Positions 6,536-64,000 of a DNA stretch of 64,000 bases are shown here, one piece after another. The DNA is taken from contig JAUSEK010000005.1 in assembly GCA_030650275.1 (NCBI GenBank), positions 39,307-103,306 of the forward strand, in the 5' to 3' direction. This DNA is from Candidatus Omnitrophota bacterium (GTDB taxonomy: Bacteria > Omnitrophota > Gorgyraeia > Zapsychrales > Fredricksoniimonadaceae). The translations under genes were made by a program, and so were the position numbers. Position 1 is the first letter of the stretch. Every line of letters begins with the position of its first letter. Below the pieces are notes generated by a model. That model was not told where the DNA came from, did no database searches, and saw only the letters and a list, made by a program, of their open reading frames with translations.

Positions 6536-8279
6536 TAAAGAAAATAACACAGAGAATACCCGTGACTTTGGCCTTCTTGCCCTGATTTTCTTAGTAATTC
6601 TCTACCGTAAATACGGTGAGTGGGTCCAGGCAAAACTACAAGAGCCGTATTCTTTAGTATTGCTTGGATTGGCGGTGGCCTTGGCATTAGGACTGCTTTG
6701 GTGTACAGGGCACTACATCGAGAAATTAAGGAATCGTTTCAATATGTGGCGACTGGGCATTAAGCCCGCAAAAGATATAGCGTTTCCTTTTTATATTTTT
6801 GATCTACCAAAGCAATTGAAAGCCCTTTACCAGAAGGGGAATAATCTCGACATGACTCTTTTAGGAATGAATGCCGAAAAACGGAATAAAGAAATGGTCA
6901 CCGTTTCCGATATTCAGCGAAGCCAGCATTTACAAATTCTAGGAATGACCGGCACAGGCAAGACCTCAGGGGTTTTCTTGCCTTTGATCTATCAGGACGC
7001 CTTGAAAAATCGTCCTGTTATCATCCTTGATGCCAAAGGAGAGTTATCATCCATTTACCAGCTTCATGCCATGCTGGCTTCTATTGGCAGGGCTGATGAT
7101 TTTTTGCTGTTCTCGTTGGCGTACAAAGATATTTCCTGTACGTATAATCCGCTATTCGTGGGGGAGTGTGATCCCCAGATCGTCATAGATGCTTTTTTAA
7201 GTAATTTTCAAGATGACAATTCGTTTTATAGGGAAATGTCTAAAACGATATTCACAAATGCTTTTTACATTTTGCATTCGCTGGGCAAGCCTTTTACGGT
7301 CTTAGATATTTATGCTTATTTGACCAAACCATCCTGCTATAGCTTTATTAATAAACAGATCACAGACAAACACGGAAAAGGGATGACGCATTTAAAGTTA
7401 CTGGAAGGATTGATCGAGCGTTTGAAGAACCAGCAAAATGGATTGGAAAATGTGATCGCGGGTTTTACCAACTATCTTTTTGCCCACCAGGACAGCACCC
7501 TCAATGACCCTGACAGCGATATTGTTTTAACTGATGCGATAAGACAACGGAAAATTGTGTATTTTCAGCTTCCGACGAATTCTTATCCCATCCAGGCTAT
7601 AAGTATCGCCCGCATGGTACAGGCGAATTTGCGCTATATTTCTTCACTTATTCAAACAGGACAAATACCAAAAAATACATTGGTTAGTATTGTCATTGAT
7701 GAATACGCTTCATTCGCCGAAGAGTCTTTTGTTGAGGTATTAAACAAGGCCCGCAGCAGCGGGATGATGGTGACCATAGCGCATCAAAGTTTAAGCGATT
7801 TAAAAGCCATATCCGTAACGTTCATGAAACGTATTGACGAAAATACTCTCAATAAAATTTATCTTAGGCAAACCGACCCGGAACTTTGCGAATTGATAGC
7901 CAAAAGCATGGGTACATACCTTAAAGAAGAAAAAACATACCGGATGACTGCGGGTAAGTTTGGTAATCAAATTTACAGCGGAGAATCGTCCAACCGTGTG
8001 GTCAATGAGTTTCACTTTCCGCCGGATAAAATCAAGAATTTGCATAAATTTGGCCAAGGATATTTTATTTATAGGGGAGACAACAGCCAGAAGTGCGTTA
8101 ACTTGGGACATTTTGTTGATATGCCGGAATTGCAGTATAAGAGAAAAGAAAAAAAGAATAAAAGAGGTGGATTGCGGTTATTTGAGAAATACTATCTTAA
8201 TTCGGCAAAGCCAAAATTGGAAAAACCTGAGAAAGATAATAAAGAAGATGGCGGAGCAAGGCCGCACATCGGAGATTGA
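6525..8279 (+). CDS. virD4: Type IV coupling protein, VirD4/TraG/TraD family
   Basis: N-terminal TM helices, Walker A LQILGMTGTGKTSG, Walker B VSIVIDEYASF, and a Lys-rich C-terminal tail. Confidence 0.75.
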   Translation: MENNKENNTENTRDFGLLALIFLVILYRKYGEWVQAKLQEPYSLVLLGLAVALALGLLWCTGHYIEKLRNRFNMWRLGIKPAKDIAFPFYIFDLPKQLKALYQKGNNLDMTLLGMNAEKRNKEMVTVSDIQRSQHLQILGMTGTGKTSGVFLPLIYQDALKNRPVIILDAKGELSSIYQLHAMLASIGRADDFLLFSLAYKDISCTYNPLFVGECDPQIVIDAFLSNFQDDNSFYREMSKTIFTNAFYILHSLGKPFTVLDIYAYLTKPSCYSFINKQITDKHGKGMTHLKLLEGLIERLKNQQNGLENVIAGFTNYLFAHQDSTLNDPDSDIVLTDAIRQRKIVYFQLPTNSYPIQAISIARMVQANLRYISSLIQTGQIPKNTLVSIVIDEYASFAEESFVEVLNKARSSGMMVTIAHQSLSDLKAISVTFMKRIDENTLNKIYLRQTDPELCELIAKSMGTYLKEEKTYRMTAGKFGNQIYSGESSNRVVNEFHFPPDKIKNLHKFGQGYFIYRGDNSQKCVNLGHFVDMPELQYKRKEKKNKRGGLRLFEKYYLNSAKPKLEKPEKDNKEDGGARPHIGD

Positions 8280-9701: not shown

Positions 9702-10901
9702 TTGAATAATATGGCTGTCTTTAATCGTGTTTGTTGTCCAGGGTGCGGTCAAAATCATAATGTCTATAAAAGAGACGTTAAGGAAATCATTTGTACGCAT
9801 TGCAAAGCAGAGATCAAAATCAGTTCCCGGGAGGGTAATTATTTTATCGAGCATTACTTCAACGGCAGGAGAAAAAGAGAGAAAGTAGGTTCCAGCCGAA
9901 AATTAGCTGAAACGGTTTTAGCCAAGCGTAAGGTCGAAATTGCTGAAGGCAAGTTTCTCGATGTTAACAAAAGTGAAAAGATCAAGTTTGAAATTTTTGG
10001 CAACGAGTTTATTAATGTCCATTCCAAGGTTAATAAAAAGAGTTGGCAGTCAGATCGCTACAATCTTAATAGCTTGGGTAAGTTTTTTGGAGGCAAATAC
10101 CTTTACGAAATCAAAGTCAAAGATATCGAAGATTTCAAGTTGGAACGTTCTAAAACCGCTTCACCGGCTACAGTTAATCGGGAGCTGGCTACTTTAAAGA
10201 CGTTATTTAATAAAGCGGTGCTTTGGGACAAGCTTAAAGAGACTCCTGCAAAAGCTGTTACTTTCTTGAGAGAGCCAAAAGGCCGGGTCCGGTTCCTGGA
10301 ACGTGAGGAGATCGTTAAATTGCTTTCCAATTGCAATAAAAAGCTGCGACCCATTGTGGTTGTTGCCTTAAATACCGGGATGCGCAGAGGAGAGATTTTA
10401 GGCTTAAAATGGTCAGATGTTGATCTCAAAAGGGCTATTTTAACCCTCCATGACACCAAGAATGGTGAAAAGCGGGAAGTATACATAAATGAGCAGGTCA
10501 AGACGGCTTTGATTAGGATACCCAGGAATGCCCAAAGTCCTTATGTTTTCTGCGGTTCCAACGGAAAACCATACCAGGATGTTCGCAAATCATTCTGGAC
10601 AGCCCTGCGTAAATCTGATATAAAAGAGTTTCATTTTCATGACCTGCGGCATACTTTCGCAAGCCAGTTGGTCATGGCCGGTATAGATCTAAATACAGTG
10701 CGAGAATTATTAGGCCATAAGGATATAAGAATGACATTGCGTTATAGCCATTTATCGGCAAGCCATAAAAAACATGCGGTGGACGTTTTAGGTAAAAAGA
10801 TAGACACTTTTTGGACACTAGACGGTGATTCTAAAAGTAAGCAAAATTATGATTTATCGCAAGTTATTGGAAATAAACAACTAATGAGGTCCGGGACGTA
10901 G
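9702..10901 (+). CDS. int: Tyrosine recombinase/integrase with N-terminal Zn-ribbon
   Basis: Catalytic region ...R...HDLRHTFAS...LGH...RY. Four Cys at the N-terminus (CPGCG...CTHC). The stop codon TAG at 10899-10901 lies inside the tRNA gene. Confidence 0.85.
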   Translation: MNNMAVFNRVCCPGCGQNHNVYKRDVKEIICTHCKAEIKISSREGNYFIEHYFNGRRKREKVGSSRKLAETVLAKRKVEIAEGKFLDVNKSEKIKFEIFGNEFINVHSKVNKKSWQSDRYNLNSLGKFFGGKYLYEIKVKDIEDFKLERSKTASPATVNRELATLKTLFNKAVLWDKLKETPAKAVTFLREPKGRVRFLEREEIVKLLSNCNKKLRPIVVVALNTGMRRGEILGLKWSDVDLKRAILTLHDTKNGEKREVYINEQVKTALIRIPRNAQSPYVFCGSNGKPYQDVRKSFWTALRKSDIKEFHFHDLRHTFASQLVMAGIDLNTVRELLGHKDIRMTLRYSHLSASHKKHAVDVLGKKIDTFWTLDGDSKSKQNYDLSQVIGNKQLMRSGT

Positions 10902-34206: not shown

Positions 34207-34953
34207 TTAACTTTGTTGAGGAATTAAAGGTACCGGCTTAATTTTTGAATCTAGTATCTTCTGCAATTCTTCTTTTTCTGATTTAAACTTCTTATCATCT
34301 AATGATGAAATTATTTCATAATACTCAGCAATTCTCTCTGAATCCCCTATTGGGCCAATTGCACGTAAAGATCCCTTAAGAAAATCTATGTGAAGCTTTA
34401 TCCATGAATCGTCAATGTGCGGACAATTGACATATTCCCTAATTGCTCTAGCAAACCAAACAGCAGCAGAAGAATGTTCGTTATTTTCTTTATAAATACG
34501 ACCTAATGCATTGTAATTATCCCCAGTTAACTCAATAATCTTATTACTAACATTACCTTTAAACTCATAGAATTTTTCATTAACCTTCTTCTCAAGATTG
34601 CTGGTCATCTGTTCAATATGGTCAACGAATTCTTTTTTAATTTCATTCCTTGCTTTGTTAACATCTGTTTTTAGTTCTTTTTTAATAAGACCAAAATTAA
34701 TTAAACCGGTTAAGCCGAGTATAATAGTTGTTAAAGAAATAAAAATAGTTATATTTGTTGAGTAACTTTGTCTTTGAGATTCCAGTAGTTCTTTATAGAA
34801 TTGATCATTCTGGGTAATCTTTTCTTCTAATATAGTTAAACGCTTATCTACAAGTTGTTCTTGGCCAGCCTGGGTAGCTTCTTTATTTGCACTGTAACAA
34901 ATACTTAGACAAATAAAATATGTTGTAATGAAAAGAATAGCACGCACTCTCAT
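34207..34953 (-). CDS. Hypothetical membrane protein with coiled-coil (low GC, probably foreign)
   Basis: Signal/TM N-terminus, a coiled-coil, and a central TM (ITIFISLTTIILGLTGLINFGLI). The gene is very AT-rich relative to its neighbours. Confidence 0.4.
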   Translation of the reverse strand: MRVRAILFITTYFICLSICYSANKEATQAGQEQLVDKRLTILEEKITQNDQFYKELLESQRQSYSTNITIFISLTTIILGLTGLINFGLIKKELKTDVNKARNEIKKEFVDHIEQMTSNLEKKVNEKFYEFKGNVSNKIIELTGDNYNALGRIYKENNEHSSAAVWFARAIREYVNCPHIDDSWIKLHIDFLKGSLRAIGPIGDSERIAEYYEIISSLDDKKFKSEKEELQKILDSKIKPVPLIPQQS

Positions 34954-35033
34954 CAGTATCCCCCCTATTTGTAAAATTGTTTCATTTGTTGAGGAAATAT
35001 TAGTAGAAAATTAGGAAAATTAGGGACAGCGCC

Positions 35034-35312: not shown

Positions 35313-35337
35313 AAATATTTAATATTGGTGATAGGCA

Positions 35338-35734: not shown

Positions 35735-36226
35735 TTATTGTTTTAAATACCCCAGCCTTTCTTTCAAATCCGTTACAAAAGTTATATCAGATCCAAATTT
35801 CTTCAAAAGAGCCGAATATTTATATTGGTTTGGGACCAATAACCTTTCCAATTTGCCGTTATTCTTTAGGTGTTCAATGAGGCAATGGAAATCTCCATCC
35901 CCTGTCACAACCACTGCTTTATCATAATTGTTCCATTCGATCATGGCATGAAGCACCAACTCCGCGTCAACGTTTCCCTTTACCCGACCGCCTTTAAGAT
36001 CAAGCGTGGGTTTGAAGACCAGAGCATATCCTTGCTGTTGAAGCGCTGTGTATAACGCTTGTTGTGCGGGTATGTAGCCGATGAACAGGAACGCTTTGCT
36101 AACTTTGTATTTATCTTTGAGATACCTGCAAAAGCGTTTGTAATCCAGTCGCCAGCCTTGGTCTTTGATGGATAGGTTCAGGTTTTGGCTGTCAATGAAA
36201 GCGTAATTGTTGAATAACTCCCCCAT
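35735..36226 (-). CDS. NYN-domain (LabA-like PIN fold) putative RNase
   Basis: N-terminal FIDSQN and VVVTGDGDFHCLIEHL acidic motifs characteristic of NYN/LabA. Confidence 0.65.
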   Translation of the reverse strand: MGELFNNYAFIDSQNLNLSIKDQGWRLDYKRFCRYLKDKYKVSKAFLFIGYIPAQQALYTALQQQGYALVFKPTLDLKGGRVKGNVDAELVLHAMIEWNNYDKAVVVTGDGDFHCLIEHLKNNGKLERLLVPNQYKYSALLKKFGSDITFVTDLKERLGYLKQ

Positions 36227-37891: not shown

Positions 37892-38235
37892 TTACGTGCG
37901 TAGTCGTCCTGGATGCGGATGATGTCGTCTTCGGTCAATTGCTCGCCGCAGGCCACTTCAATGAACACGAGTTTTTCATCTCCTGTATTGCCGATGCGAT
38001 GAACAGCACCAAGGGGAATATCAACCACCACTCCCGGCTTCACAGGGATCTCTTTTTGGTCAACAATGGCCAGCCCCTGCCCGGCCACAATGATCCATTT
38101 TTCGGACCTGTGCTGGTGTTTTTGCAAACTAAGCCGGGACTTGGGGTTGACCTCCACCCTTTTGACCCAAACTCCGGGTTCCTGGTGGAATTTGTGGTAT
38201 TGGCCCCAAGGCCTTTTGGATATTTCGCTGGTCAT
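37876..38235 (-). CDS. Cupin-domain protein (mannose-6-phosphate-isomerase-like small barrel)
   Basis: PWGQYHKFHQEPGVWVKRVEVNPKSRLSLQKHQHRSEKWIIVAG, the two-His cupin motif. Overlaps the hemL stop by 4 nt and the Rho-like start by 16 nt. Confidence 0.6.
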   Translation of the reverse strand: MTSEISKRPWGQYHKFHQEPGVWVKRVEVNPKSRLSLQKHQHRSEKWIIVAGQGLAIVDQKEIPVKPGVVVDIPLGAVHRIGNTGDEKLVFIEVACGEQLTEDDIIRIQDDYARKCSDS

Positions 38236-39530
38236 GGCTTTGATTGTAAGAAAAATTTAAGGATTTGGCCAGATAAATGGTCCAAATTTTTGGCTGTGTG
38301 TTGGGTGGACACAAAAAATGCTTCCAGGTCAGCCGGCGGCCAGTAAATGCCGTTTTTAAGCAAATGATGGAATAATCTGGCGTAGGTCTTGTCCGATGAC
38401 GCGGTTTTGGCATCCGCGTAATTCTTGACAGATCCCCAACGGAAACGCATGCTCATCATGCTTTTGTAATGGCTCAAGTGCGCGTCGATCTCGTTGTCCG
38501 CGAGCATTTGATTGAGGTCATCCGCAAAACGTTCGCATTTGCTGTTGAGGTCTTTATAGACGGCTGGTGTCAGGTTTTTTAATACTGCAAGACCGGTGCG
38601 CATGACCACGGGGTTTCCGGAAAACGTGCCGGCCTGATAGACCGGCCCCAAAGGCGCCAAATGGCGCATGATGTCCTTGCGGCCGCCATAAGCTCCGACC
38701 GGGAATCCCCCGCCGATGATCTTGCCCAAGCAGGTCATGTCCGGGACAATGCCGAGATCCGCCTGCACTCCCCCTGAATTCGTACGAAAACCCGTCATCA
38801 CTTCATCAAAGATGAGCACAATGCCGTATTTTTTGGTCAGGGTCCGCAATGTTCTTAAGAAGGCCTTGTCCGGCACGATGACACCCATATTGCCGGCCAC
38901 CGGCTCAACAATGACGCAGGCAATGTTTTTCCAATGGCGTTCGATGACGATGCTCAATCCATTAATGTCGTTGTAAGGCAAACTAAAAGTATTTTGCACG
39001 TGGCTGGCTGGTATGCCGCGGCTGGACGATGCCGGTAAACCGGCAACCCCTGAACCGGCCGTGGTCAAAAGGTCATCGCAATGGCCGTGATAACAGCCGT
39101 CAAATTTGACCACCTTGTCGCGGCCGGTGAACCCGCGCGCCAGACGAATGGCGCTCATGGCGGCTTCGGTGCCGGAATTGACAAAACGCACCATGTCAAC
39201 CGACGGCACGTGTTTGGTGATGAATTGGGCGATCTCAACTTCGGGCTTGGTGGTGGTGCCGAAACTACTGCCGTAGCCAATACCGGTTTTGGTGGCCTTG
39301 AAGGCCTGTGGATGATTGTGACCTAAAATAAGAGCACCCCAGGACAGGCAGTAATCCGTATAGGCATTTTTGTCTACATCAAAAATACGTGCTCCACTGC
39401 CATGGTCGGTCACAAAAGGATTGCCGCCCACGGCTTTGAACGCACGCACAGGGCTGTTCACCCCACCGACCATGACCCGGCTTGCTTGAGCAAATATTTT
39501 AGAGGAATTTTTGAAGGACATCTTTGGCAT
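38232..39530 (-). CDS. hemL: Glutamate-1-semialdehyde 2,1-aminomutase
   Basis: Class III aminotransferase fold, conserved along the full 432 aa. Confidence 0.9.
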   Translation of the reverse strand: MPKMSFKNSSKIFAQASRVMVGGVNSPVRAFKAVGGNPFVTDHGSGARIFDVDKNAYTDYCLSWGALILGHNHPQAFKATKTGIGYGSSFGTTTKPEVEIAQFITKHVPSVDMVRFVNSGTEAAMSAIRLARGFTGRDKVVKFDGCYHGHCDDLLTTAGSGVAGLPASSSRGIPASHVQNTFSLPYNDINGLSIVIERHWKNIACVIVEPVAGNMGVIVPDKAFLRTLRTLTKKYGIVLIFDEVMTGFRTNSGGVQADLGIVPDMTCLGKIIGGGFPVGAYGGRKDIMRHLAPLGPVYQAGTFSGNPVVMRTGLAVLKNLTPAVYKDLNSKCERFADDLNQMLADNEIDAHLSHYKSMMSMRFRWGSVKNYADAKTASSDKTYARLFHHLLKNGIYWPPADLEAFFVSTQHTAKNLDHLSGQILKFFLQSKP

Positions 39531-40491
39531 GATAACTGATGATGATATCCGCGCCGGCGCGTTTCATGCCGGTTAGGATTTCAAGGACTAGTGCTTTTTC
39601 ATCCACCCAACTGTTTTTTCCGCCGGAGGCGGATCCGCCTTTGGCGGAAGCCGCGGCTTTGACCATGCTGTATTCCCCGCTGACATTGTAGGCCACGATT
39701 GGCACGGTCAATTCCCGACGGAGCAAGGACACGATGTCCAGATAGGCCAAGGCGGGTTTGACCATGACCATGTCCGCGCCTTCCTTGATGTCCTGGCGGG
39801 CTTCCTTGAGCGCTTCGCGGCTGTTGGTCGGGTCCATTTGATAGGTTTTGCGGTCGCCGAATTCCGGGGCCGAGTGGGCCGCGTCCCGGAAAGGCCCATA
39901 AAACGCTGAAGCGTATTTGGCGGCGTAAGACAAAATGCAGGTGTCCACCAGCCCGGCTTTTTCCAATTTGTTGCGGATCGCGGCAATGCGAAAGTCCATC
40001 ATATCAGACGGTGCCACAATGTCCGCGCCGGCCTGGGCATGCACCAAGGCGGACTGGGCCAGAATGGGCAGGGTTTTGTCGTTGTCTATTTTTCCATTCT
40101 GCACAATGCCGCAATGGCCATGGCTCATATAACTGCACAAACACACATCAGTGATGACCAAAAAGTCAGGGAAATGTTTTTTAATGGCTTTGACGGCCTG
40201 GGGCACAATGCCTTTGGGGTCCACGGCCGAGGCGGCTTTTAAATCTTTTTGGGAAGGAATACCGAAGAAAAGGCCTGCCTTGCCCCCTGCCTTGACATAC
40301 GCGTCAAGTTCTTTGAGCAAAAGGTCCTTGGAAAAGCGGTGAATGCCGGGCATGGCATCAATGGCCTGTTTCTTGCCTTTGCCTTCAATGACAAAGAACG
40401 GCTGAACAAGATCATGGCTGGTCAAAGCCGTCTCTGCCGTCATTTTTCTTAATGTTTTGAACGCGCGCAGACGCCGGAAGCGATTATTCAT
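39499..40491 (-). CDS. hemB: Porphobilinogen synthase (delta-aminolevulinic acid dehydratase)
   Basis: Active-site lysines and a metal-binding Cys-rich loop (DVCLCSYMSHGHCG). Confidence 0.9.
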   Translation of the reverse strand: MNNRFRRLRAFKTLRKMTAETALTSHDLVQPFFVIEGKGKKQAIDAMPGIHRFSKDLLLKELDAYVKAGGKAGLFFGIPSQKDLKAASAVDPKGIVPQAVKAIKKHFPDFLVITDVCLCSYMSHGHCGIVQNGKIDNDKTLPILAQSALVHAQAGADIVAPSDMMDFRIAAIRNKLEKAGLVDTCILSYAAKYASAFYGPFRDAAHSAPEFGDRKTYQMDPTNSREALKEARQDIKEGADMVMVKPALAYLDIVSLLRRELTVPIVAYNVSGEYSMVKAAASAKGGSASGGKNSWVDEKALVLEILTGMKRAGADIIISYHAKDVLQKFL

Positions 40492-40493: not shown

Positions 40494-42518
40494 TCAGGTC
40501 AGCAAGGTTGTTGGTTCATAGCCGGCCTCTTTGAGGGCCTTGGCTGTGACCGGGCCTTTGGCCAAAATGTCCCAATGAGCCGGTATTGTACCATAATCGG
40601 CGAGGAAATTCTTCACTGTTGAAGGGCTGGTGAAGATCACCTGGTCAATGGGGACGGCCGGCAGGTCCCGTTTGGGTGGTTTTACATTTTCATAAACAGC
40701 CCATTCCATGACCTCGGCCCCGTTTTCGGTCAAAGCGTCTTTCAAGAAAGGATTGGGCAAAGATGAACGCGGAAAAAGAATGTGTTTGCCTTTGACGTCC
40801 ATGACGTCCAGCAAGGCCTCTAACAGCCCTTGGGCGGTTTCCTCTTGGGCCACAATAAACGGGATGATGCCGTATTCCAAAAGGCAATCCGAGGTGTGGG
40901 ACCCGATGGCGGCAAATTTTTTGCCGGCAAACGCGTCTCCTTTAATGGTTTTCATAAAACATTCAACACCAAAACGGCTGGTCACAACCACAAGATCGGC
41001 ACGGGCGAGATCTTTTTCAAGTTTATTCCTCTGCTTTTCATCAAAAATGACAGGTTTGATGTCAATGACCGGCCAATGGATGATGGTGCCGAATTTGCGG
41101 TAATACGACGGGTTTGTGCCCAGATATAGGATATTTTTGCCCGGAACATCCTGATAAAAATTTACCGTTGCCCCGGCGATGATCAAAGCCGGCGGCTTCA
41201 GGCCGGACTTTTTAGCCGCGGTTTCAATGTTTGCCAATGTCCCTTTGACAATACGCTCGTCGGGACGGGTGCCTTTGCTGATGATCATGATGGGTGTTGT
41301 GTCCGGCCATTTTGCTTTTTTAAGGGATGTGACGATCATATCCAGTTTGGTCAGCCCCATTAAAAAGATAATGGTGTCCACCTTGGGGATGGGGATGGGT
41401 TTTGTATGGGTGGCGCCCTCACCTTCCTCATGGCCGCTGATGAACGCCACGGACGAGGCAATGCCGCGGGCGGTCAAGGGCACCATGAGGTCCGCCGGGA
41501 TGCCGGTGGCGGAACTGATACCGGGGATAACCGAGACAGGGACATGATAAGAACGCAGATACGTTATTTCATCCGCCCCCCTGCCGAAAACCAGCGGGTC
41601 CCCGCCTTTGAGCCGCACAACATTTTTGCCGGCCATGGCTTTTTCCTTGAGCATGCGGGACAATTCTTCCTGGGAGAATGTGTGCTTGCCTTTGCGTTTT
41701 CCGGCATAAATGTGTTCAGCTTGGGGGGCGTAATTCAATAATCGCGTGTCCGCCAGATAATCATAGAAAACGCAATCCGCTTTTTTCAAGGCCTTGATGG
41801 CTTTGACCGTGATCAGGTCCGGGTCCCCGGGGCCTGCACCAGCGAGAATAACCTTGCCGTATCTGGTCCGCACGTCAATGGCCTTGAAAAGGTTGCGCAG
41901 GGCCGTGTCCTTGGCCCTTCCCACCACAGCCAATTGTCCCTGTAAAGCCATGCCTTCCCACGGGAATATGTCTTTGATCTTTTTTTCAAGGCCAAGGCGT
42001 TTCAGGGCGCAGGCGGCAACGACGATGCCGTCTACCTTACCCTGCTTGACCAACTCTATGCGTTCTTCAATGGTGCCGCGGATGTCAACGATATGAACGT
42101 CGGGACGTAACTCTTTGATCTGTTTTTGACGCAGGATACTGCTGGTGCCGACCTTTGTACCTTTCGGCAGGTCCGCGAACGCGCGCAAGCCCACCCAGGC
42201 ATCACGGTCATCCAGCGTTTCAGTTAAAGCAAAAATTTCCAGTCCGGCAGGAATATGCTGCGGCAGGTCTTTGGCGCTGTGCACGGCGATGTCAATGTCG
42301 CCTTTTAAAAGCGCCTGGTCCAGGGTGTCTGTAAAAAAATCATCCCCGGGCTGGCGCGTCAAGGATGTTTTCTTGTCACGGTCACCAGCGGTTGTGTATG
42401 TGATCAATTGGTATTGTAGAGACGCAGAATTCTGCGCCTCTACGAGACGGACGATTTCCTTAACCTGGGCCAGAGCCAAACGGCTGGAGCGCGACCCGAT
42501 CTTAAGAGACGATTTCAT
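40494..42518 (-). CDS. Trifunctional fusion: HemC-like domains 1-2 / uroporphyrinogen-III C-methyltransferase (CobA) / uroporphyrinogen-III synthase (HemD)
   Basis: Residues 1-215 align to HemC domains 1-2 (SRLALAQ...GTSSILRQ...). Residues 220-460 are CobA (VILAGAGPGDPDLITVKA). Residues 460-674 are a HemD fold. No HemC domain 3 or cofactor cysteine is present. Confidence 0.75.
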   Translation of the reverse strand: MKSSLKIGSRSSRLALAQVKEIVRLVEAQNSASLQYQLITYTTAGDRDKKTSLTRQPGDDFFTDTLDQALLKGDIDIAVHSAKDLPQHIPAGLEIFALTETLDDRDAWVGLRAFADLPKGTKVGTSSILRQKQIKELRPDVHIVDIRGTIEERIELVKQGKVDGIVVAACALKRLGLEKKIKDIFPWEGMALQGQLAVVGRAKDTALRNLFKAIDVRTRYGKVILAGAGPGDPDLITVKAIKALKKADCVFYDYLADTRLLNYAPQAEHIYAGKRKGKHTFSQEELSRMLKEKAMAGKNVVRLKGGDPLVFGRGADEITYLRSYHVPVSVIPGISSATGIPADLMVPLTARGIASSVAFISGHEEGEGATHTKPIPIPKVDTIIFLMGLTKLDMIVTSLKKAKWPDTTPIMIISKGTRPDERIVKGTLANIETAAKKSGLKPPALIIAGATVNFYQDVPGKNILYLGTNPSYYRKFGTIIHWPVIDIKPVIFDEKQRNKLEKDLARADLVVVTSRFGVECFMKTIKGDAFAGKKFAAIGSHTSDCLLEYGIIPFIVAQEETAQGLLEALLDVMDVKGKHILFPRSSLPNPFLKDALTENGAEVMEWAVYENVKPPKRDLPAVPIDQVIFTSPSTVKNFLADYGTIPAHWDILAKGPVTAKALKEAGYEPTTLLT

Positions 42519-57122: not shown

Positions 57123-57431
57123 ATGAGATGGATGGAAAAACTAAAATCAAAATGGGATATCCAAAGCAATTGGGATTTCTGGATGATCATGCTCACTTTC
57201 TCGCTGGCCGGCACCTCCATCATGTCCATACGTAATGTCATTTTTCCTTTACTGGGCATTGAGGCCGGCACCCCTCTGTGGGTAAAGATCCTGGTCTATA
57301 TCCCCCTTTTTCCGCCGGTCTATCAGCTGGGACTGTTGTTCTTTGGGTTTATCCTGGGACAATTCCCGTTCTTCTGGGAAAAAGAAAAGAGATTGGCGAA
57401 ATTCTTAATGAAGCGTTTCAGGCGGGCTTGA
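57123..57431 (+). CDS. Hypothetical small membrane protein
   Basis: 3 TM helices. Preceded by two unlisted mini-ORFs (53 and 47 aa, both hydrophobic) at 56825..56986 and 56983..57126. Confidence 0.3.
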   Translation: MRWMEKLKSKWDIQSNWDFWMIMLTFSLAGTSIMSIRNVIFPLLGIEAGTPLWVKILVYIPLFPPVYQLGLLFFGFILGQFPFFWEKEKRLAKFLMKRFRRA

Positions 57432-58431
57432 AAACGTAAAGCATCAAGTAGATCAAAACCCCGGTCACGGAAACGTACATCCATGTCGGGTAAAGCCATT
57501 TGGTGATGCGGGTATGTTTCTGGAATTCCCCCCGGTACGCGTGCCGCAGGGCCATGAGGATAAACGGCACGATCAGCACCGCTAATGGCGTATGTGTCCC
57601 TAAAATAAAGAAGTATATCGCCCGCCACATCCCGGACCCCTTGTAGTGTGTAATTCCCGCCGACGTCAGGTGATAATACAGATACGTGCATAAAAACAGG
57701 GCCGAGGACGCAAAAGCGCAAAGCATGAATTTTTTATGCGTGACCCGGTCTTTACGTTTGATGGCCAAAAATCCCAGCACCAGAAAGACCCCTGCCAGGC
57801 CGTTGAGCAACGCGTTGATCGTCGGTAAAAGCGGGACGCTCATCCCTTTTTTCTCCCTTAAAACAACGGCAATGTCCTTGAATAACCGCGCGAGTTTTTT
57901 CTTGTCCATCCCGTCATAATAGCCCCGGATACGCCCCTGTCTGTCCACCAGCGTGAAATAACTGCTGTGAAAGACCGGTTCATCCACCTTGCCCAACTTG
58001 AATGATTGCGCGGAGAGTTTTTGTATATCCGCCAATGGTCCTGTCAAAAAAAACCATCGGTCCGTGTTCGCCTTGAATTTCTTTGCGTAGGTCTTGAGGG
58101 TTTCAGGCGTGTCGGTGTCCGGATTGACCGAAATAGACACCAGGCGCACATCATCTACCAGGACATAGGAACGGTGCAGTTTGGCCATGTTGGCGCCCAT
58201 GACCGGACAGATTCCGCCGCAGGTGGTGAACATGAAGTCCGCCACCCACACCTTACCTTTGAGATCTTGCAGTGAAACGGTTTTCCCATCGCTATTGAGC
58301 AATCGGAAATCCGTCAACTGTCCGATCACAGGCAAAGGTTGGACTGGTTTAAGAAAATAAACCAAGGCCGCGCAAAAAAGGACCGCAAAGAACAGGATCT
58401 GTGAAAAGAAGAAACGTTTGGAAAACATCAT
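57418..58431 (-). CDS. SCO1/SenC-like thioredoxin-fold copper chaperone fused to a DUF420-type membrane domain
   Basis: The start at MMFSKR (58431) gives an ATGA overlap with cyoE. It has a TlpA/SCO-like CGGICP motif and a C-terminal 4-TM domain rich in conserved His/Tyr. Confidence 0.6.
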   Translation of the reverse strand: MMFSKRFFFSQILFFAVLFCAALVYFLKPVQPLPVIGQLTDFRLLNSDGKTVSLQDLKGKVWVADFMFTTCGGICPVMGANMAKLHRSYVLVDDVRLVSISVNPDTDTPETLKTYAKKFKANTDRWFFLTGPLADIQKLSAQSFKLGKVDEPVFHSSYFTLVDRQGRIRGYYDGMDKKKLARLFKDIAVVLREKKGMSVPLLPTINALLNGLAGVFLVLGFLAIKRKDRVTHKKFMLCAFASSALFLCTYLYYHLTSAGITHYKGSGMWRAIYFFILGTHTPLAVLIVPFILMALRHAYRGEFQKHTRITKWLYPTWMYVSVTGVLIYLMLYVFKPA

Positions 58432-59297
58432 AGAATGGAGAGATCTAATATGATCACAAAAAGCAATAACGGCAGATACAGGACGGAAGCTCCCAGCAAG
58501 CGGCGGGCATCCGGCATGGAGTGGGAGCAAAGCAGGCGCCAACCGGCATATAGAAAACCGGACCCGAGGACCACGGCGCCGGCCAGATAGAATTTTCCGG
58601 ACATGCCCATCAAAAACGGCAGAACGGAAACGGCCAAAAGCATGAGACAATAGAAAATAGCGTGGCGAAATGTTGAAATGCCATCGGGCTCAACCACCGG
58701 CAGCATTTTGAATCCCGCTTTTGTATAATCCTCTTTGCACAGCCAGGCAATGGCATAAAAATGCGGATGCTGCCAGGCAAAAAGAATAAGAAACAGCACC
58801 CATGCCCCGGGATCAAGATGACCGGTCGCGGCCGCCCACCCTCCCATCGGCGGAATGGCCCCGGGAATGGCCCCGATCGTCGTATTCAACCAACTGATCT
58901 TTTTCATGGGCGTATACACCAAAATATACAAGAATGCCGTTAGCAACGACAGGAATGCCGTCAATAAATTGACCCTCCAGCACAACAAAGAAACCCCCAT
59001 GAGGATCATCAGGATCCCGTAGGCCAGGGCATTGGCTGGGGTGATGGTCCCCCTGGGCAAAGGCCTGTTTTTTGTGCGCTTCATCAGGGCATCACTGTCG
59101 CGTTCCAGATAATGATTGAGCGCCCCGGCACCCGCGCAGGTCAAGGCCGCGCCCAAAAGCGTCAAAGCCAGAATTCCCCAATCCCGCACGCCTTTTCCAG
59201 CCAGATAATACCCCAATGCCGTTGTCACCAGCACGAGCATTAAAATGCTCGGCTTGGACAATTCAATGTAGGCGTTCCATTTTTCTTTATTGATCAT
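58428..59297 (-). CDS. cyoE: Protohaem IX farnesyltransferase (haem O synthase)
   Basis: UbiA-family polytopic protein with N/D-rich motifs (NHYLERDSD, DxxxD). Confidence 0.9.
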   Translation of the reverse strand: MINKEKWNAYIELSKPSILMLVLVTTALGYYLAGKGVRDWGILALTLLGAALTCAGAGALNHYLERDSDALMKRTKNRPLPRGTITPANALAYGILMILMGVSLLCWRVNLLTAFLSLLTAFLYILVYTPMKKISWLNTTIGAIPGAIPPMGGWAAATGHLDPGAWVLFLILFAWQHPHFYAIAWLCKEDYTKAGFKMLPVVEPDGISTFRHAIFYCLMLLAVSVLPFLMGMSGKFYLAGAVVLGSGFLYAGWRLLCSHSMPDARRLLGASVLYLPLLLFVIILDLSIL

Positions 59298-60283
59298 CGG
59301 GCAGATAACATCCCTTTAAATTTTACCCAGGTCATGGGCGAAGCGCGCAGCACCAACAAAAGCGATAACCCCAGGACAACCGCTCCCATGGTGACGTGGG
59401 CCGTCGTCGTATATACTTCTTTCTCGAAAATGACCGTGGCGATCCCCAGCATGATCTGCGCAAACATCATCAGATTCAGCCAATACAGCGTTTTCATCAC
59501 CAGGGGCTTGGCCAAATGGTCGCGATAGGCCACATGATTGATAAAAAATAATTTTGCTAAAATTAAAAATGCCCAAACACGATGTAAAATATGTATATGC
59601 ACCTGGCCCATACGGACAGGCTCAAGGTTTTGTTCAAAACGCCAGGCATTGATCCTGTTGAGCATGTCTTGGTCAAAGGTGGGAATGAGCGACCCTCCCA
59701 TGGTCGGAAAATCCGGAACAGCCAGTCCTGATCCGGTATGGCGCATGACATTGGCGATCATCAGTTGAACATACACCATCCCGAAAAGGATGAACGTATA
59801 TTTCAGGAATTTTGTGTCCGTCCCTTCATCGTTCGCCTTTAAACGGTTTTTGCGCTCAACACAAAAAGCGTACGCGAGCAGGACCGTCATGCAAAAAAAT
59901 GTTTGGGCCAGCACCCCGTGGCCCGAGGAGAGCAATACCGGTAAAAAGAACAGGACAGCCAGCCCGCCCAAAACGCCCTGGGCTACGACGGTCAACAGCG
60001 CCGCTACCCCTAGTTTTTTGATCCAGCCCTCAACAGGCGTGCGGCACAGCCAGATCGTCAGGACCAGGACAAGCAGTCCGACGAAAAAGGCGATCATGCG
60101 GTGGCCGTGTTCATAAAACACCCCTCCGACCATGGGCGGGAATAATGTGCCGTACGACAAAGGCCAATCCGGCACAGCCAGGCCTGACTCGGTGCTTTTA
60201 ACAAGGCCGCCGGCAAAGATCAAAAAAAGCGTTGAACCGCAGACGAATTTTGTATAACGGCGTAGGGTTAAGAAATCAGGCAT
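59294..60283 (-). CDS. ctaA: Haem A synthase (CtaA/COX15 family)
   Basis: 8 TM helices with conserved His pairs. Start chosen at MPDFLTLRR, just downstream of the coxB stop; the longer ORF reaches 60355. Confidence 0.65.
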   Translation of the reverse strand: MPDFLTLRRYTKFVCGSTLFLIFAGGLVKSTESGLAVPDWPLSYGTLFPPMVGGVFYEHGHRMIAFFVGLLVLVLTIWLCRTPVEGWIKKLGVAALLTVVAQGVLGGLAVLFFLPVLLSSGHGVLAQTFFCMTVLLAYAFCVERKNRLKANDEGTDTKFLKYTFILFGMVYVQLMIANVMRHTGSGLAVPDFPTMGGSLIPTFDQDMLNRINAWRFEQNLEPVRMGQVHIHILHRVWAFLILAKLFFINHVAYRDHLAKPLVMKTLYWLNLMMFAQIMLGIATVIFEKEVYTTTAHVTMGAVVLGLSLLLVLRASPMTWVKFKGMLSAR

Positions 60284-60288
60284 AGGGA

Positions 60289-61056
60289 TCAATTCCAAAA
60301 AGAGTCGCCGCCGGAATTTGAAGAACCTCCGGCAGTCGGTTGTTGGGCCAGCCATTGGTCATACTCCGCCTCGGAATGGACCGTATAGAATCCCTTCATA
60401 CGGTAATGGCCGATGCCGCACAATTGGGCGCAGGTGATCTCCCAGGCCCCGGTTTTGGTGGGTGTAAACCATGTCTTGATGCTCATGCCAGGGATCACAT
60501 CCTGTTTGACGCGCATTTCCGGCAGGGTAAAACAATGGATGACGTCCTTGGAGGACAAATGGATGATGAGCGGCCTGCCCACCGGCATGTGCAATTGGTT
60601 GATGGCCGTGATATCGTCCTGGGCGTTCGGGTCGCTCAAATCCAGGCCGATGGGATTGGTCTGCTGGTCCACCAATTTGGGATTTGTCCTGCCGAACACG
60701 CCGTCCTTGCCGGGATAATGAACGTTCCAAGCGAATTGCTCGGCAACGATCCTTACTTCAATGGCGTCGGGACGGTCAGGAAAAGCATTGACCTGTTTGG
60801 CCCAGAAGGGGATGGAGAACCCGACAAGGAAAATCACCTCGATGACGACCACGGCCAATTCCACATAACTGTTGGCCTGGCTTTTAAACCCCGCGTAATC
60901 GGCTTTTGGGTTGACCCGGCAGTTAAAGCGCAGCAGCACAAAAACAAAAAACAGCCCCCAACCGACGGACAGGACGATCATGAACGCGTGCATGTATATG
61001 ATGAGCGCGTCTATCTCATAACCGTGGGCGGAAGCGTTTACAGGAAGACCAAACAT
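60289..61056 (-). CDS. coxB: Cytochrome c oxidase subunit II (CuA centre, no cytochrome c domain)
   Basis: Two N-terminal TM helices and CuA ligands H...CAQLCGIGHYRM. Confidence 0.85.
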   Translation of the reverse strand: MFGLPVNASAHGYEIDALIIYMHAFMIVLSVGWGLFFVFVLLRFNCRVNPKADYAGFKSQANSYVELAVVVIEVIFLVGFSIPFWAKQVNAFPDRPDAIEVRIVAEQFAWNVHYPGKDGVFGRTNPKLVDQQTNPIGLDLSDPNAQDDITAINQLHMPVGRPLIIHLSSKDVIHCFTLPEMRVKQDVIPGMSIKTWFTPTKTGAWEITCAQLCGIGHYRMKGFYTVHSEAEYDQWLAQQPTAGGSSNSGGDSFWN

Positions 61057-61067
61057 ATTTGTTTTCC

Positions 61068-61283
61068 TTAATGATCAAGCATGGACCTGCGCCGCAGGGA
61101 CAGAAAAAAATAACCGAATCCTCCCAGGACGAACATCACGATCACCAGCAATGTCAGCATGCCAAAATTCAATCCCTTGGCCATCGGGGACGTTGGATCC
61201 CCGAAACAAACGGCGCAGGCGCGCACGGACGGGGCCCACACAGTGCACAACAGGATGGTTGACAAAAGCGCGAACGTGTTCAT
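61068..61283 (-). CDS. Small membrane protein with CxxC motif (oxidase-cluster associated)
   Basis: 71 aa with a TM, CAVCFGDP, and a second TM. Confidence 0.3.
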   Translation of the reverse strand: MNTFALLSTILLCTVWAPSVRACAVCFGDPTSPMAKGLNFGMLTLLVIVMFVLGGFGYFFLSLRRRSMLDH

Positions 61284-61465
61284 AAAGACTTGTATCGGCG
61301 ATAAAATTTAAGGCCATACCACCCCAGCAAAACGGCGCCGATGGCCGCCAAGATCCCCAAAAACTGCGTTTGGGGTTGTTGGGATACCATGGTCAACACG
61401 ACCAGCAAAAGACACAGCGCGAAACAAATACCAATGAAACACAGGTGGATGAATTTAATGCCCAT
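61280..61465 (-). CDS. Small 2-TM membrane protein
   Basis: 61 aa, hydrophobic. Overlapping stop/start with both neighbours. Confidence 0.3.
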   Translation of the reverse strand: MGIKFIHLCFIGICFALCLLLVVLTMVSQQPQTQFLGILAAIGAVLLGWYGLKFYRRYKSL

Positions 61466-61826
61466 GTCCCGCCTCCACCGGCACGCCGGTAGCCTGCTGC
61501 GCCATTAATTCATAGGAAAGGTCCCTTGTTCCCAGCAGATAATTATAATGGTTACCCGTGGTCAGGAACATCATGCTGAAAAAGAAAAATACGGTGAAGG
61601 CCAGAATACTGTATATCAATTGGCGTTCGGAAAGCAAATGCATAAAAAACCCGACCACCAGGAACCCTTTGACACAGGCGACCATGAGGGCCAGGGTCAC
61701 GGCCAGATGGGTCGGCAAATGCAGGCGGTTGATAGCGACCGTGATGCCCGTCAACAGCAGTAGAGCGCCGAAGACCAGCAGATAGGCGCGTATTTCCTTA
61801 TGAATGTCATGCGTATGTCCGAACAT
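61455..61826 (-). CDS. Cytochrome oxidase subunit IV-like small membrane protein
   Basis: 123 aa, 3 TM helices, immediately downstream of subunit III. Confidence 0.45.
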   Translation of the reverse strand: MFGHTHDIHKEIRAYLLVFGALLLLTGITVAINRLHLPTHLAVTLALMVACVKGFLVVGFFMHLLSERQLIYSILAFTVFFFFSMMFLTTGNHYNYLLGTRDLSYELMAQQATGVPVEAGHGH

Positions 61827-61841
61827 GTGTCTACTCTCCTA

Positions 61842-62435
61842 TTACAGTAAATACAGGACCGGGAACAGAAATATCCAGACCAGGTCCACAAAGTGCCAGT
61901 ACAGACCGGCCACCTCGATACGGTTAGTAAAGCGTTCGGGATCGGTCCGCCACATTTTTGACCCAGGACCTATCAGATAGGACATGACAACGATCCCCCC
62001 CGCCACGTGCAGGGCGTGCAGGCCGGTCAAGGTAAAATAAATACCCAAAAAATTGTTCGTGGCCGGAAAAAGCCCGTGCGCGAACTTTGCGGAATACTCG
62101 AAATATTTGACAATAAGAAAAATGAACGCGCACAGCATGGTCAGCCCCAGATAAAGCTTGCAACGCTGAAGGTTCTTCATACGCAATGATGCCCAGGCAA
62201 GAACGACCGTCACGCTGGAGGCAATAAGGACGACCGTGTTGAGCGTGGCCAGGGGGATGTTGAGCAGAGATGCCCCCTGCGGCCAGTTCGGCGACCCTAT
62301 GCGCAGCAGGACATAGGACGAGAACAAAGACCCGAACAGCATGACCTCAGCGCTCAAGAACAGCCATATGCCCAGTTTGGCGTTAAAAAGCCCCGTGTCA
62401 GGCCGTTCGTGGACTGTATAGGGAATGGCGTCCAT
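61842..62435 (-). CDS. ctaE: Cytochrome c oxidase subunit III
   Basis: Haem-copper oxidase subunit III fold ending in WHFVDLVWIFLFPVLYLL. Confidence 0.85.
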   Translation of the reverse strand: MDAIPYTVHERPDTGLFNAKLGIWLFLSAEVMLFGSLFSSYVLLRIGSPNWPQGASLLNIPLATLNTVVLIASSVTVVLAWASLRMKNLQRCKLYLGLTMLCAFIFLIVKYFEYSAKFAHGLFPATNNFLGIYFTLTGLHALHVAGGIVVMSYLIGPGSKMWRTDPERFTNRIEVAGLYWHFVDLVWIFLFPVLYLL

Positions 62436-62438
62436 GAG

Positions 62439-64000
62439 TTATTTCTCCTGTTTCTGGTATTGCGGGGTGAAGTCCTCGCCGGCACCCGGCACGCTGTATT
62501 CATAAGGCCCGCGGTAAGCGGCCACAGGTGTCAGAAAATTCCCGTGTCCCGGCGGCGACGGGCAGGCCCATTCAAGAGTGGTGGCTTTCCAGGGATTGTC
62601 GTCATGGATGCGTTTGCCCCTGAACATGCTCCAGATGACATTAAAAATGAACACCAGCTGGACCGCGCCCATGATAAAGGCCGCGATGGAGATAACGACA
62701 TTCCAGTGCAGGACCGGTTGATTGATGGCATAACTGGATCCCCCGTCATATAAACGCCGCGACATGCCGGCCAGGCCCTGGATCAGCATGGGGAAAAAAA
62801 TAAAATTCATACAAACAAAAGAAGGCCAAAAATGCAAATGACCCAGGACCTCATTCATTTTACGGCCCGTTATTTTTGGGAACCAGTAGTAGATGCCGGC
62901 AAACAACGCAAAAATTGTCCCCGGCGCTACCACGTAATGGAAATGGCCTATGACGTAATAGGTATCGTGCAGGTGGATGTCCGCGGCGGAAAGGCCCAAC
63001 GGCAGACCTGTAAGGCCGCCGATGCCGAACATCGGCAGAAACGCCAGGGCGAAGAGCATGGCGGTGTTAAACCGTATGGACGCACCCCACAGCGAGATGA
63101 ACAGTGCCGTCAAAATGACCACCGATGGGATGGAAATGATCATGGTGGTGGCCTGGAAGAACACGCTGATGGCTGGACCCATGTTGGTCAAGTACATGTG
63201 ATGGGCCCAGACGATGAACGACAAAAAGCCCAGCACGACGATCGAGTAGACCATGGTCTTATAGCCCCAGATGGGCTTGCGGATATTGTTGGCGATGATC
63301 TCGGTGACGATGCCCATGGCCGGCAGGATGAGCACGTACACTTCCGGATGGCCCAGGAACCAAAACAAATGCTGCCACAACAACACGCTGCCTCCTCCGG
63401 CCACGTTCATGGGCTGGCCGCTGACGAAGAGGCCTGATGGCAAAAAGAAACTGGTACCGGCCACCCTGTCAAGCAATTGCAGGATGCTGGCCCCTTCCAG
63501 CGGTGGGAACGCCAGCAACAGCAGGAAGCCCGTGACCAATTGCGCCCAGACAAAAAACGGCAGGCGCATCCATGTCATCCCCGGGGCGCGTAACTGAAAA
63601 ATAGTGGCGATAAAATTGATGGCAGCCAGTAAAGACGAGTTGATAAGAAAAACCATCCCGATCAGCCACACCGTCTGGCCTATGGGCGCGATGTCCGCCA
63701 GCGGTGGATACGACGTCCATCCGGAACTGGCCGCGCCTCCGGGGACAAAGAAACCGCAGAGCATCAATACCCCGCCGATGAAATACAGATCATAACTGAC
63801 CATGTTCAACTTCGGGAATGCCATGTCCGGTGCGCCTATCTGCAGGGGCACGAGGTAATTGCCGAACGCGGCGAAGACCAGCGGCACAATACCCAAAAAC
63901 ACCATAATGGTCCCGTGCATGGCGCCCAACTGATTGTAGAAATCGGGCGTCATGATGCCGCCGGGCATGAAATCCTCCCCGAACCACGTTCCAATGACGG
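62439..64000 (-). CDS. ctaD: Cytochrome c oxidase subunit I (5'-partial; runs off the window end)
   Basis: Haem a/a3 and CuB His ligands (MHG..., WQHLFWFLGHPEVY, HHMY). The frame is open past the ATG at 63968 to the window end, and helix I is missing inside the window. Confidence 0.9.
   Translation of the reverse strand, partial: VIGTWFGEDFMPGGIMTPDFYNQLGAMHGTIMVFLGIVPLVFAAFGNYLVPLQIGAPDMAFPKLNMVSYDLYFIGGVLMLCGFFVPGGAASSGWTSYPPLADIAPIGQTVWLIGMVFLINSSLLAAINFIATIFQLRAPGMTWMRLPFFVWAQLVTGFLLLLAFPPLEGASILQLLDRVAGTSFFLPSGLFVSGQPMNVAGGGSVLLWQHLFWFLGHPEVYVLILPAMGIVTEIIANNIRKPIWGYKTMVYSIVVLGFLSFIVWAHHMYLTNMGPAISVFFQATTMIISIPSVVILTALFISLWGASIRFNTAMLFALAFLPMFGIGGLTGLPLGLSAADIHLHDTYYVIGHFHYVVAPGTIFALFAGIYYWFPKITGRKMNEVLGHLHFWPSFVCMNFIFFPMLIQGLAGMSRRLYDGGSSYAINQPVLHWNVVISIAAFIMGAVQLVFIFNVIWSMFRGKRIHDDNPWKATTLEWACPSPPGHGNFLTPVAAYRGPYEYSVPGAGEDFTPQYQKQEK

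Follow-up and report, generated by a model that had tools for sequence, protein, structure and literature searches.

A trifunctional HemC-CobA-HemD fusion from Candidatus Omnitrophota carries a HemC module of a lineage lacking the cofactor domain

The window analysed here, a stretch of 64,000 nt from a Candidatus Omnitrophota bacterium (assembly GCA_030650275.1, contig JAUSEK010000005.1, positions 39,307-103,306 of the forward strand), encodes a 674-residue protein in which a hydroxymethylbilane synthase (HMBS, the HemC protein) is fused to a CobA methyltransferase and a HemD synthase. The HemC-like module comprises domains 1 and 2 only and is devoid of domain 3, where the cysteine that anchors the dipyrromethane cofactor normally resides. 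As judged from residue conservation, the pattern is that of a catalytic pocket that has been kept and remodelled and not of a decaying or purely binding domain. We favour the reading, at a probability of roughly 60%, that the fusion is an active enzyme converting porphobilinogen to precorrin-2 and that its deaminase works without a cofactor anchored to a domain 3 Cys. The module falls within a widespread, ancient, and still conserved HemC lineage that lacks the cofactor domain and is apparently undescribed.

In the textbook mechanism HMBS assembles its own primer and retains it in covalent linkage, and the structures solved so far are all of three domains, the primer being attached to a Cys of domain 3 (PMC7959689). 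If the two-domain module is active, pyrroles can be tetramerised without a covalent cofactor, some other means of priming the chain and controlling its length must exist, and haem synthesis in Chlamydia-related bacteria rests on a deaminase that is structurally distinct from the human enzyme. Databases label these proteins HMBS or uroporphyrinogen-III C-methyltransferase and pass over the missing domain without remark, and no mention of two-domain HemCs was found in the literature searched, which included reviews of haem biosynthesis (2026) and of HMBS structures (2021). A curated model for them (NF002202) was already known; the fusion is a conserved trifunctional protein whose deaminase module comes from an apparently uncharacterised, cofactor-domain-less branch of HMBS. 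Fused enzymes leading from porphobilinogen to precorrin-2 are also possible parts for engineering the production of sirohaem, B12, or haem.

Architecture of the fusion

The open reading frame (ORF) and its modules, in window coordinates and all on the minus strand, are as follows.

40494..42518 (-): trifunctional fusion HemC(domains 1-2)-CobA-HemD, 674 residues; ATG start, TGA stop, uninterrupted ORF
41868..42518 (-): two-domain HemC-like module, residues 1-217; identified by PF01379, TIGR00212, NF002202, and tree placement
41853..41876 (-): junction DVRTRYGK, residues 215-222; HemC module ends at the canonical domain 1/3 boundary, CobA follows three residues on
41145..41861 (-): CobA/SUMT, S-adenosylmethionine-dependent uroporphyrinogen-III C-methyltransferase domain, residues 220-458; identified by TIGR01469, NF004790, and structure matches
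40503..41135 (-): HemD, uroporphyrinogen-III synthase domain, residues 462-672; identified by PF02602

The original prediction, made from the sequence alone, had described the ORF as a trifunctional tetrapyrrole fusion with a complete methyltransferase and a HemD-like domain, and each of these assignments stands. In one uninterrupted frame Pfam recognises PF01379 (Porphobil_deam, residues 5-208, 189.7 bits), PF00590 (TP_methylase, residues 222-431, 168 bits), and PF02602 (HEM4, residues 477-668, 130.6 bits against a cutoff of 27.5). The CobA domain scores above the curated cutoffs of TIGR01469 (246.7 bits, cutoff 185) and NF004790 (256.3 bits, cutoff 198) and matches NirE, CysG, and SUMT chains with E values of 1e-39 to 1e-49. 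The HemD equivalogs of NCBIfam are matched below their cutoffs, the best being NF004593 at 101 bits (cutoff 275), which does not speak against HemD function because HemD sequences are very divergent.

An AlphaFold2 model of the fusion, built from a 79-sequence alignment, is confident, with a mean predicted local distance difference test (pLDDT) score of 93.5 and a predicted template modelling (TM) score of 0.79, with pLDDT values of about 97 over the HemC-CobA junction. In Foldseek comparisons the CobA domain superposes on the solved SUMT structures 1S4D, 1V9A, and 2YBO with target TM scores of 0.81-0.90 and root-mean-square deviations of 1.7-3.2 Å over about 240 columns. The N-terminal module adopts the periplasmic-binding-protein-like fold of HMBS domains 1 and 2 (E about 5e-19 against 1AH5, 1PDA, and 4HTG) and aligns over 220-251 of about 300 columns of the HMBS structures at target TM scores of 0.64-0.67, equivalent to two of the three domains.

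Absence of domain 3

The last residues of the HemC module are AIDVR217, and residue 220 is the first of the CobA motif YGKVILAGAGPGDP. Because CobA starts three residues after the end of the HemC module, there is no space for a domain 3 between them and no sign of a frameshift. The alignment of the query with solved HMBS chains of Escherichia coli, Vibrio, and Bacillus covers query residues 4-215 and breaks off at about residue 220 of those chains, the domain 2/3 boundary; the E. coli chain is aligned over its residues 5-220, a stretch in which the E. coli HemC reference sequence used here agrees with the Protein Data Bank (PDB) alignments. The stand-alone members of the lineage introduced below terminate at the same point as the query module, in the pattern F-x-x-I-D-x-R.

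PF03900 (Porphobil_deamC) has no Pfam match in the fusion ORF even at E ≤ 1. The hemC equivalog TIGR00212 is covered only over positions 1-217 of 293 and yet passes its cutoff (194.5 bits against 164), so that this cutoff is no test for domain 3, the score being reached on domains 1 and 2 alone. A profile was made from the domain 3 sequences of 56 canonical HemCs, all 56 of which have the cofactor Cys. Neither the six-frame translation of the entire 64-kb window nor that of 212 kb around eleven further loci without domain 3 gave a match to it, and domain 3 and the cofactor Cys are missing from the ORF, from all frames of the window, and from about 500 relatives. The claims that the HemC-like part is limited to some 215 residues of domains 1 and 2 and that domain 3 is missing along with its cofactor Cys are thus borne out.

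Three other accounts of this architecture were considered and rejected. A frameshift or a domain 3 hidden within the ORF, the two possibilities raised with the original prediction, conflicts with the continuity of the ORF, with the three residues between the modules, and with negative six-frame scans using two domain 3 profiles. An assembly artefact conflicts with the occurrence of the same architecture in more than 170 Omnitrophota relatives. Finally, the sequence DVRxRY at the junction is not a C-terminal replacement motif, as Arg-217 is absent from most stand-alone and HemA-fused members and the remainder is the start of CobA.

A clade of two-domain HemCs of apparently single origin

The fusion is not a peculiarity of a single ORF, its HemC module being part of a large family of single origin. 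The recurrence of the architecture in relatives, which the original prediction had left to be checked, is complete among the best 120 database relatives listed (56-100% identity): PF01379, PF00590, and PF02602 occur together in 120 of 120 and PF03900 in none. Wherever the sources of these 120 give a name, it is Candidatus Omnitrophota. When the HemC-like module alone was searched against 1.84 billion cluster representatives, domain 3 was absent from about 145 of the best 150 matches, which were classed by architecture as follows (HemC12, a HemC of domains 1 and 2 only).

62 of the best 150: HemC12-CobA-HemD
36 of the best 150: HemC12 joined directly to HemD
24 of the best 150: stand-alone HemC12, 212-239 residues
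13 of the best 150: module at the C terminus of HemA or SirC-HemA
10 of the best 150: HemC12-CobA
1 of the best 150: HemA-HemC12-CobA-HemD (P0231, a chain of 860 residues)

A profile of the HemC12-HemD fusions retrieved 120 proteins named hydroxymethylbilane synthase of Parachlamydiaceae, Rhabdochlamydiaceae, Simkaniaceae, and Chlamydiota, including that of the cultured Simkania negevensis (P0371), which lies on a chromosome record of 2.50 Mb. With a stand-alone member as the query, a further search returned 120 proteins of 214-241 residues (one of 283) that match PF01379 only and are named for Chlamydiales, Waddliaceae, Chlamydia sp., and Candidatus Aerophobetes. Among the loci listed, domain-3-less fusions also occur in metagenome-assembled genomes (MAGs) of Victivallales, Kiritimatiellae, and Lentisphaerae.

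NCBI curates a two-domain hydroxymethylbilane synthase model, NF002202, of 241 positions, which is the best model for most stand-alone members. The query module matches positions 18-234 of it with 195.2 bits, under the 251-bit cutoff; even chlamydial-type stand-alone proteins score 230-245, from which the model seems to be tuned to Chlamydiaceae. Pathogenic Chlamydia presumably have only the short hemC, in keeping with the length of this model and with a pangenome list.

When 60 canonical and 82 domain-3-less modules were placed in one neighbour-joining tree, a simple distance tree that carries no support values, 81 of the 82 domain-3-less modules formed one pure clade with the query (P0001) inside it; the exception (L048) is a 309-residue ORF that is probably a canonical HemC. 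Because the domain-3-less modules group in this way, domain 3 was apparently lost once, after which the two-domain form would have diversified and fused repeatedly with its pathway neighbours.

Several unusual proteins were noted near or within this clade. Larger early-tetrapyrrole fusions are built around HemC12 in P0220, P0223, P0230, and P0231, for example a SirC-like NAD-binding domain with HemA and HemC12. P0151 (352 residues) is a two-domain HemC with a 130-residue tail containing CIENSCRSQ, which by eye resembles a low-molecular-weight phosphatase or arsenate reductase. Among the closest relatives P0237 (294 residues; also P0275) is a HemC of canonical length with a very divergent domain 3, which the 56-sequence profile matches at E = 0.0016; the protein has Asn-Phe at the position of the cofactor Gly-Cys and a Cys six residues later, and may be an intermediate or another form without the cofactor Cys.

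Conservation of the active site

The residues of the module were compared with the contacts listed for human HMBS in complex with a substrate analogue and as the ES2 intermediate (PMC7959689, Table 2). The positions that the text refers to are given here in query numbering.

42456..42458 (-): Glu21, near-invariant clade marker, three residues after the substrate-amine-binding Gln18
42336..42341 (-): Asp60-Phe61, clade markers at the end of the active-site lid loop; Asp/Asn-Phe in the clade against canonical Gly-Leu/Val
42267..42275 (-): Ala82-Lys83-Asp84 (HSAKD); Lys-Asp is the catalytic pair, Ala82 a clade marker
42129..42134 (-): Leu129-Arg130; Leu in place of E. coli Arg131, Arg130 equivalent to the retained Arg132
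42006..42011 (-): Cys170-Ala171; Cys170 equivalent to E. coli Ala172 and found in CobA-fused classes only, Ala171 equivalent to Gly173 and a clade marker

Apart from Arg131, the substrate site and both pyrrole sites (1 and 2) are complete in the query, which has (in E. coli numbering) Arg11, Ser13, Gln19, Phe62, Ser81, Lys83, Asp84, Thr127-Ser129, Arg132, Arg149, Arg155, Ala170, and Arg176. Across the trifunctional class, for which all residue counts are based on 178 sequences, Asp84, Ser126/127, Arg130, Arg153, and Ala168 (query numbering) are present in 178 of 178, and Arg10, Gln18, Lys83 (177 of 178), Arg147, and Arg174 in at least 174. All of these conserved residues are found in 119 of 119 stand-alone proteins, and the catalytic Asp84 and the substrate-site residues remain invariant over hundreds of sequences, down to about 35% identity.

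Superimposed on this retained site are five residues that mark the clade, Glu21, Asp/Asn60, Phe61, Ala82, and Ala171, all of which the query carries. Glu21 occurs in 119/119 stand-alone proteins, 115/115 chlamydial fusions, and 118/120 close relatives, against mainly Trp, Gln, Leu, or Met in canonical HemCs; it lies close in sequence to Gln18, whose human counterpart Gln34 binds the substrate amine (PMC7959689). Ala82 is found in 77 of the 82 domain-3-less modules, the canonical HemCs having Met (27), Leu (19), or Ala (12), and Ala171 in 68 of 82, against Gly173 in 59 of 60 canonical sequences.

The one lost contact, Arg131, corresponds to Arg149 of the human enzyme, a residue touching the acetate group of ring c1 of the cofactor (PMC7959689, Table 2). 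It is present in 60/60 canonical HemCs and 119/119 stand-alone short HemCs, whereas the CobA-fused class has mostly lost it (8/178 trifunctional fusions), the query having Leu129 at this position.

Cysteines and a possible relocated anchor

No conserved Cys column was found in any class, whether in the 178 trifunctional proteins, in the chlamydial fusions, or in the 119 stand-alone proteins. The best column per class reaches 156 of 178 in the trifunctional class (Cys170), 90% in the chlamydial fusions, and 56% in the stand-alone proteins, 11 of 119 of which have no Cys at all. A Cys anchor relocated to a common position throughout the clade is rejected on these grounds. Since members without any Cys keep a perfect active site, the clade as a whole would appear to be independent of a thioether-anchored cofactor.

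A more restricted version, in which the CobA-fused members carry the dipyrromethane cofactor on Cys170 of domain 2 and otherwise follow the conventional mechanism, is unlikely but has some points in its favour. Cys170 is confined to the CobA-fused classes, with none in 60 canonical and none in 119 stand-alone HemCs, where the position is Ala in 59/60 and 117/119. By sequence register it lies two residues past Ala168, the equivalent of human Ala189, the backbone NH of which binds the ring in pyrrole site 1 (PMC7959689), and one helical turn ahead of Arg174 (human Arg195). The gain of Cys170 also tracks the loss of Arg131, with 154 of the 178 proteins being non-Arg with Cys and 6 being Arg without Cys, although these counts are phylogenetically non-independent. 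However, a true anchor is invariant, as in the 56 canonical domain 3 sequences, and 12% (22/178) of the trifunctional proteins have Ala, Val, Ile, or Ser in place of Cys170; examples are P0115, which has a single Cys, at position 249, and P0074, encoded on a contig of 820 kb.

Two further Cys positions were noted. In 12 of the 22 trifunctional proteins lacking Cys170 a Cys occurs at query position 162 (a subgroup that includes P0081, P0088, P0092, P0097, P0103, P0108, P0110, P0111, P0114, P0116, and P0119); as it sits at the start of a β-strand, it was judged unlikely to be a back-up anchor. The second lies just before the conserved Asp76 (query position about 75), where it accounts for the 90% and 56% columns of the chlamydial fusions and stand-alone proteins, and is Val in Simkania negevensis.

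Operon context and the role of the module

Two further genes of the early pathway follow the fusion on the same strand.

39499..40491 (-): hemB, porphobilinogen synthase; PF00490, 457 bits; starts 2 nt past the stop codon of the fusion
38232..39530 (-): hemL, aminotransferase of the glutamate-1-semialdehyde aminomutase type; PF00202, 224 bits; overlaps the end of hemB

The order fusion-hemB-hemL is kept in relatives of about 60% identity despite other upstream genes; it is seen at loci L004, L005, L010, L013, and L085, of which L010, L013, and L085 are domain-3-less fusions of other lineages. The comparison loci came from a scan of species-representative genomes in which the matches listed are mostly distant canonical loci, and among them hemA, a full-length hemC, cobA-hemD, hemB, and hemL are arranged together at at least 56 loci from many phyla, including an Omnitrophota MAG (L050). 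The arrangement hemA-hemC-cobA/hemD-hemB-hemL is therefore likely to be ancestral, and the window gene, which has the same position in it, fills the combined slot of hemC and cobA-hemD.

In the Chlamydiales a porphobilinogen deaminase adjacent to rnc and radA is a core family of 37 genomes (PMC3899948), and the rnc-radA synteny of the two-domain HemC recurs at loci L002 and L006. Taken together, the operon slot, the existence of stand-alone and HemA-fused forms, and the status of a core gene in Chlamydiales argue that the module is the pathway's porphobilinogen deaminase.

This bears on the role proposed in the original prediction, that of a binding or channelling module. If so, the HemC-like part would be catalytically dead and would hand precursor to CobA-HemD, with a different, canonical HemC as the source of hydroxymethylbilane. 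Such a module might well lack domain 3 and its Cys and have Arg131 replaced, and the gene for a canonical HemC is found in at least one MAG of the phylum, L050. Against this, the invariance of Asp84 (178/178) and of the substrate site to about 35% identity is unexpected for a mere docking module, the module also occurs on its own or attached to HemA, forms that offer no CobA-HemD to be fed, and the gene occupies the hemC slot and belongs to the clade annotated as HMBS in the core genomes of Chlamydiales. We regard a dead module as highly improbable, and of the overall interpretation put forward at first the fusion, the loss of domain 3, and the departure from the textbook enzyme are retained but the passive role is not.

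The operon context also speaks to a split enzyme, in which a domain 3 with its Cys would be supplied in trans by a small protein or another gene. Domain 3 does fold independently in canonical HemC according to the three-domain description (PMC7959689), and our domain 3 scans covered DNA on the scale of loci (64 kb plus 212 kb). Nevertheless, these scans were negative in the window and around the eleven loci, the stop codon of the stand-alone chlamydial hemC overlaps the start codon of hemD, the next gene, no PF03900 was found in the neighbouring genes of the domain-3-less loci examined, and a single ancestral loss with long retention of the two-domain form fits true dispensability better. A split enzyme is accordingly given very little weight.

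Proposed mechanism

In solved HMBS structures the domain 3 Cys binds the dipyrromethane primer, and chain growth stops when the cofactor loop meets a helix of domain 3 (PMC7959689). Because domain 3 both anchors the cofactor and limits chain length, the module cannot work exactly like textbook HMBS, and the original prediction was right in denying it the status of a conventional deaminase.

For the preferred reading, that of an active enzyme with an unanchored or differently anchored chain, we propose the following scheme. The two-domain HemC would convert porphobilinogen to hydroxymethylbilane, the C-terminal HemD would convert this to uroporphyrinogen III, and the central CobA would methylate uroporphyrinogen III to precorrin-2, the fusion presumably being co-transcribed with hemB and hemL. 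Priming may be non-covalent, for example from a hydrated first pyrrole, in which case the finished chain would already be hydroxymethylbilane. Alternatively, the chain could be held by another, more labile anchor, for which the clade-specific Glu21 is one candidate and, in the CobA-fused class, Cys170, appearing together with the loss of Arg131, a second. The product would then be taken over by HemD, whether fused or encoded by the adjacent gene.

We infer this enzymatic activity, and the anchoring chemistry of domain-3-less HemCs generally, from residue patterns and gene context, and several points weigh against them. Arg131, which is Leu in the query, is reportedly essential for cofactor assembly in the E. 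coli enzyme, as found by mutagenesis in the Jordan laboratory. Where Glu21 and Cys170 lie with respect to the active site is deduced from sequence register; a canonical hemC is present in the Omnitrophota MAG L050; and, as the search for domain 3 spanned the 64-kb window and about 212 kb at the loci of relatives, a canonical hemC or a free domain 3 could lie elsewhere. No enzymatic data for any domain-3-less HemC were found in the literature searched. An anchor-free mechanism would be without precedent, since all solved HMBS structures have three domains and a covalent cofactor, and a 2021 structural paper states the same of all known HMBSs (PMC7959689).

A broader proposal would extend the scheme to the whole lineage, that is, to this protein, the Chlamydiota HemCs, and the relatives from Lentisphaerae/Victivallales, Kiritimatiellae, and Aerophobetes. 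All would make the linear tetrapyrrole without a covalent dipyrromethane cofactor and with domains 1 and 2 only, Glu21 and, in CobA-fused members, Cys170 being candidate contributors and hand-over to HemD replacing domain 3 as the limiter of chain length. We advance this proposal tentatively, with somewhat less than even confidence.

Comparison with known systems

Canonical HemC (TIGR00212; PF01379 plus PF03900; structures 1PDA, 1AH5, 4MLQ, and 3ECR) shares with the query module the fold of domains 1 and 2, the site residues, and the operon position, whereas the query lacks domain 3 and the cofactor Cys, has Leu for Arg131, and carries the clade markers and Cys170. The chlamydial short HMBSs (NF002202/PRK01066, about 215-241 residues, and HemC12-HemD proteins such as that of Simkania negevensis) belong to the same clade, with the same end point and markers, but unlike the query they keep Arg131, have Ala170, and are without a CobA domain. 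No biochemical characterisation of them was found in the literature.

CobA-HemD bifunctional enzymes have been studied in Desulfovibrio vulgaris and clostridia and are named uroporphyrinogen III methyltransferase / synthase by JGI. They have the same domain order and the same place downstream of hemC and upstream of hemB, but in the query a HemC module is fused in front to give three activities per chain. The same three activities, in the same order and in the same hemA-...-hemB-hemL operon, are combined in Clostridia with a HemC of domains 1-3 (L035, 3812-6301, of a Blautia sp. MAG; L077, 7974-10379, of an Eubacteriales MAG). As these ORFs keep domain 3 and its Cys and their HemC parts group with canonical HemCs, the Clostridia fusions are independent of the present one.

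The HmbS-UroS protein of Leptospira interrogans, for which dual activity has been reported (Guegan et al. 2003, as cited in PMC8698207), is a natural HemC-HemD fusion but has no CobA domain; it was not recovered among the relatives found here. CysG has a homologous C-terminal SUMT domain (157 bits against 1PJQ-type chains), and its model NF007922 is matched at positions 205-449, but with 257 bits against a cutoff of 400; the query is without the N-terminal dehydrogenase/ferrochelatase part (CysG-B), and Pfam finds no NAD_binding_7 domain in the ORF.

Other features of the window

The window also encodes consumers of haem, in one cluster.

57418..63968 (-): SCO1-DUF420, haem O synthase (UbiA family, CtaB), haem A synthase (CtaA), COX2, COX4, COX3, and COX1

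The aa3-type oxidase and the haem O and haem A synthases pointed out in the original prediction are therefore present as CtaB, CtaA, and COX1-4, and with SCO1 they imply that the organism uses haem. No late haem-pathway genes, of either the classical or the Ahb branch, were found in the 64-kb window. At the end of this A-type haem-copper oxidase cluster the copper chaperone SCO1/SenC and DUF420 are joined in one ORF of 410 residues (57418-58650, minus strand).

Immediately upstream of the fusion, at 42543-44579 on the minus strand, a gene of 678 residues combines a cyclic-nucleotide-binding domain with a patatin-like phospholipase, and the same pairing of patatin gene and fusion occurs in a relative of about 60% identity (L004, 7849-9987).

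Positions 1-10901 (plus strand) have a guanine-plus-cytosine (GC) fraction of 0.36-0.47, compared with about 0.53 elsewhere, and contain type-IV-secretion/conjugation genes, namely a VirB4/TraC-like ATPase (40..1881), TrbI (5310..6266), a TraG/TraD coupling protein (6525..8279), and, at the end of the block, a tyrosine integrase (9702..10901). This block is probably an integrative conjugative element in the Omnitrophota genome. A second patch of low GC (0.39) at 34000-36300 lies where the genes switch from the plus to the minus strand and holds a 248-residue ORF with no Pfam match (34207..34953, minus strand) and an NYN-domain ORF (35735..36226, minus strand). Between the two, at 25421-31863, is a molybdenum hydroxylase cluster of the xanthine/CO-dehydrogenase type with FAD-binding, 2Fe-2S, and molybdopterin subunits, the last of 773 residues, and with XdhC and a MobA-like transferase nearby.

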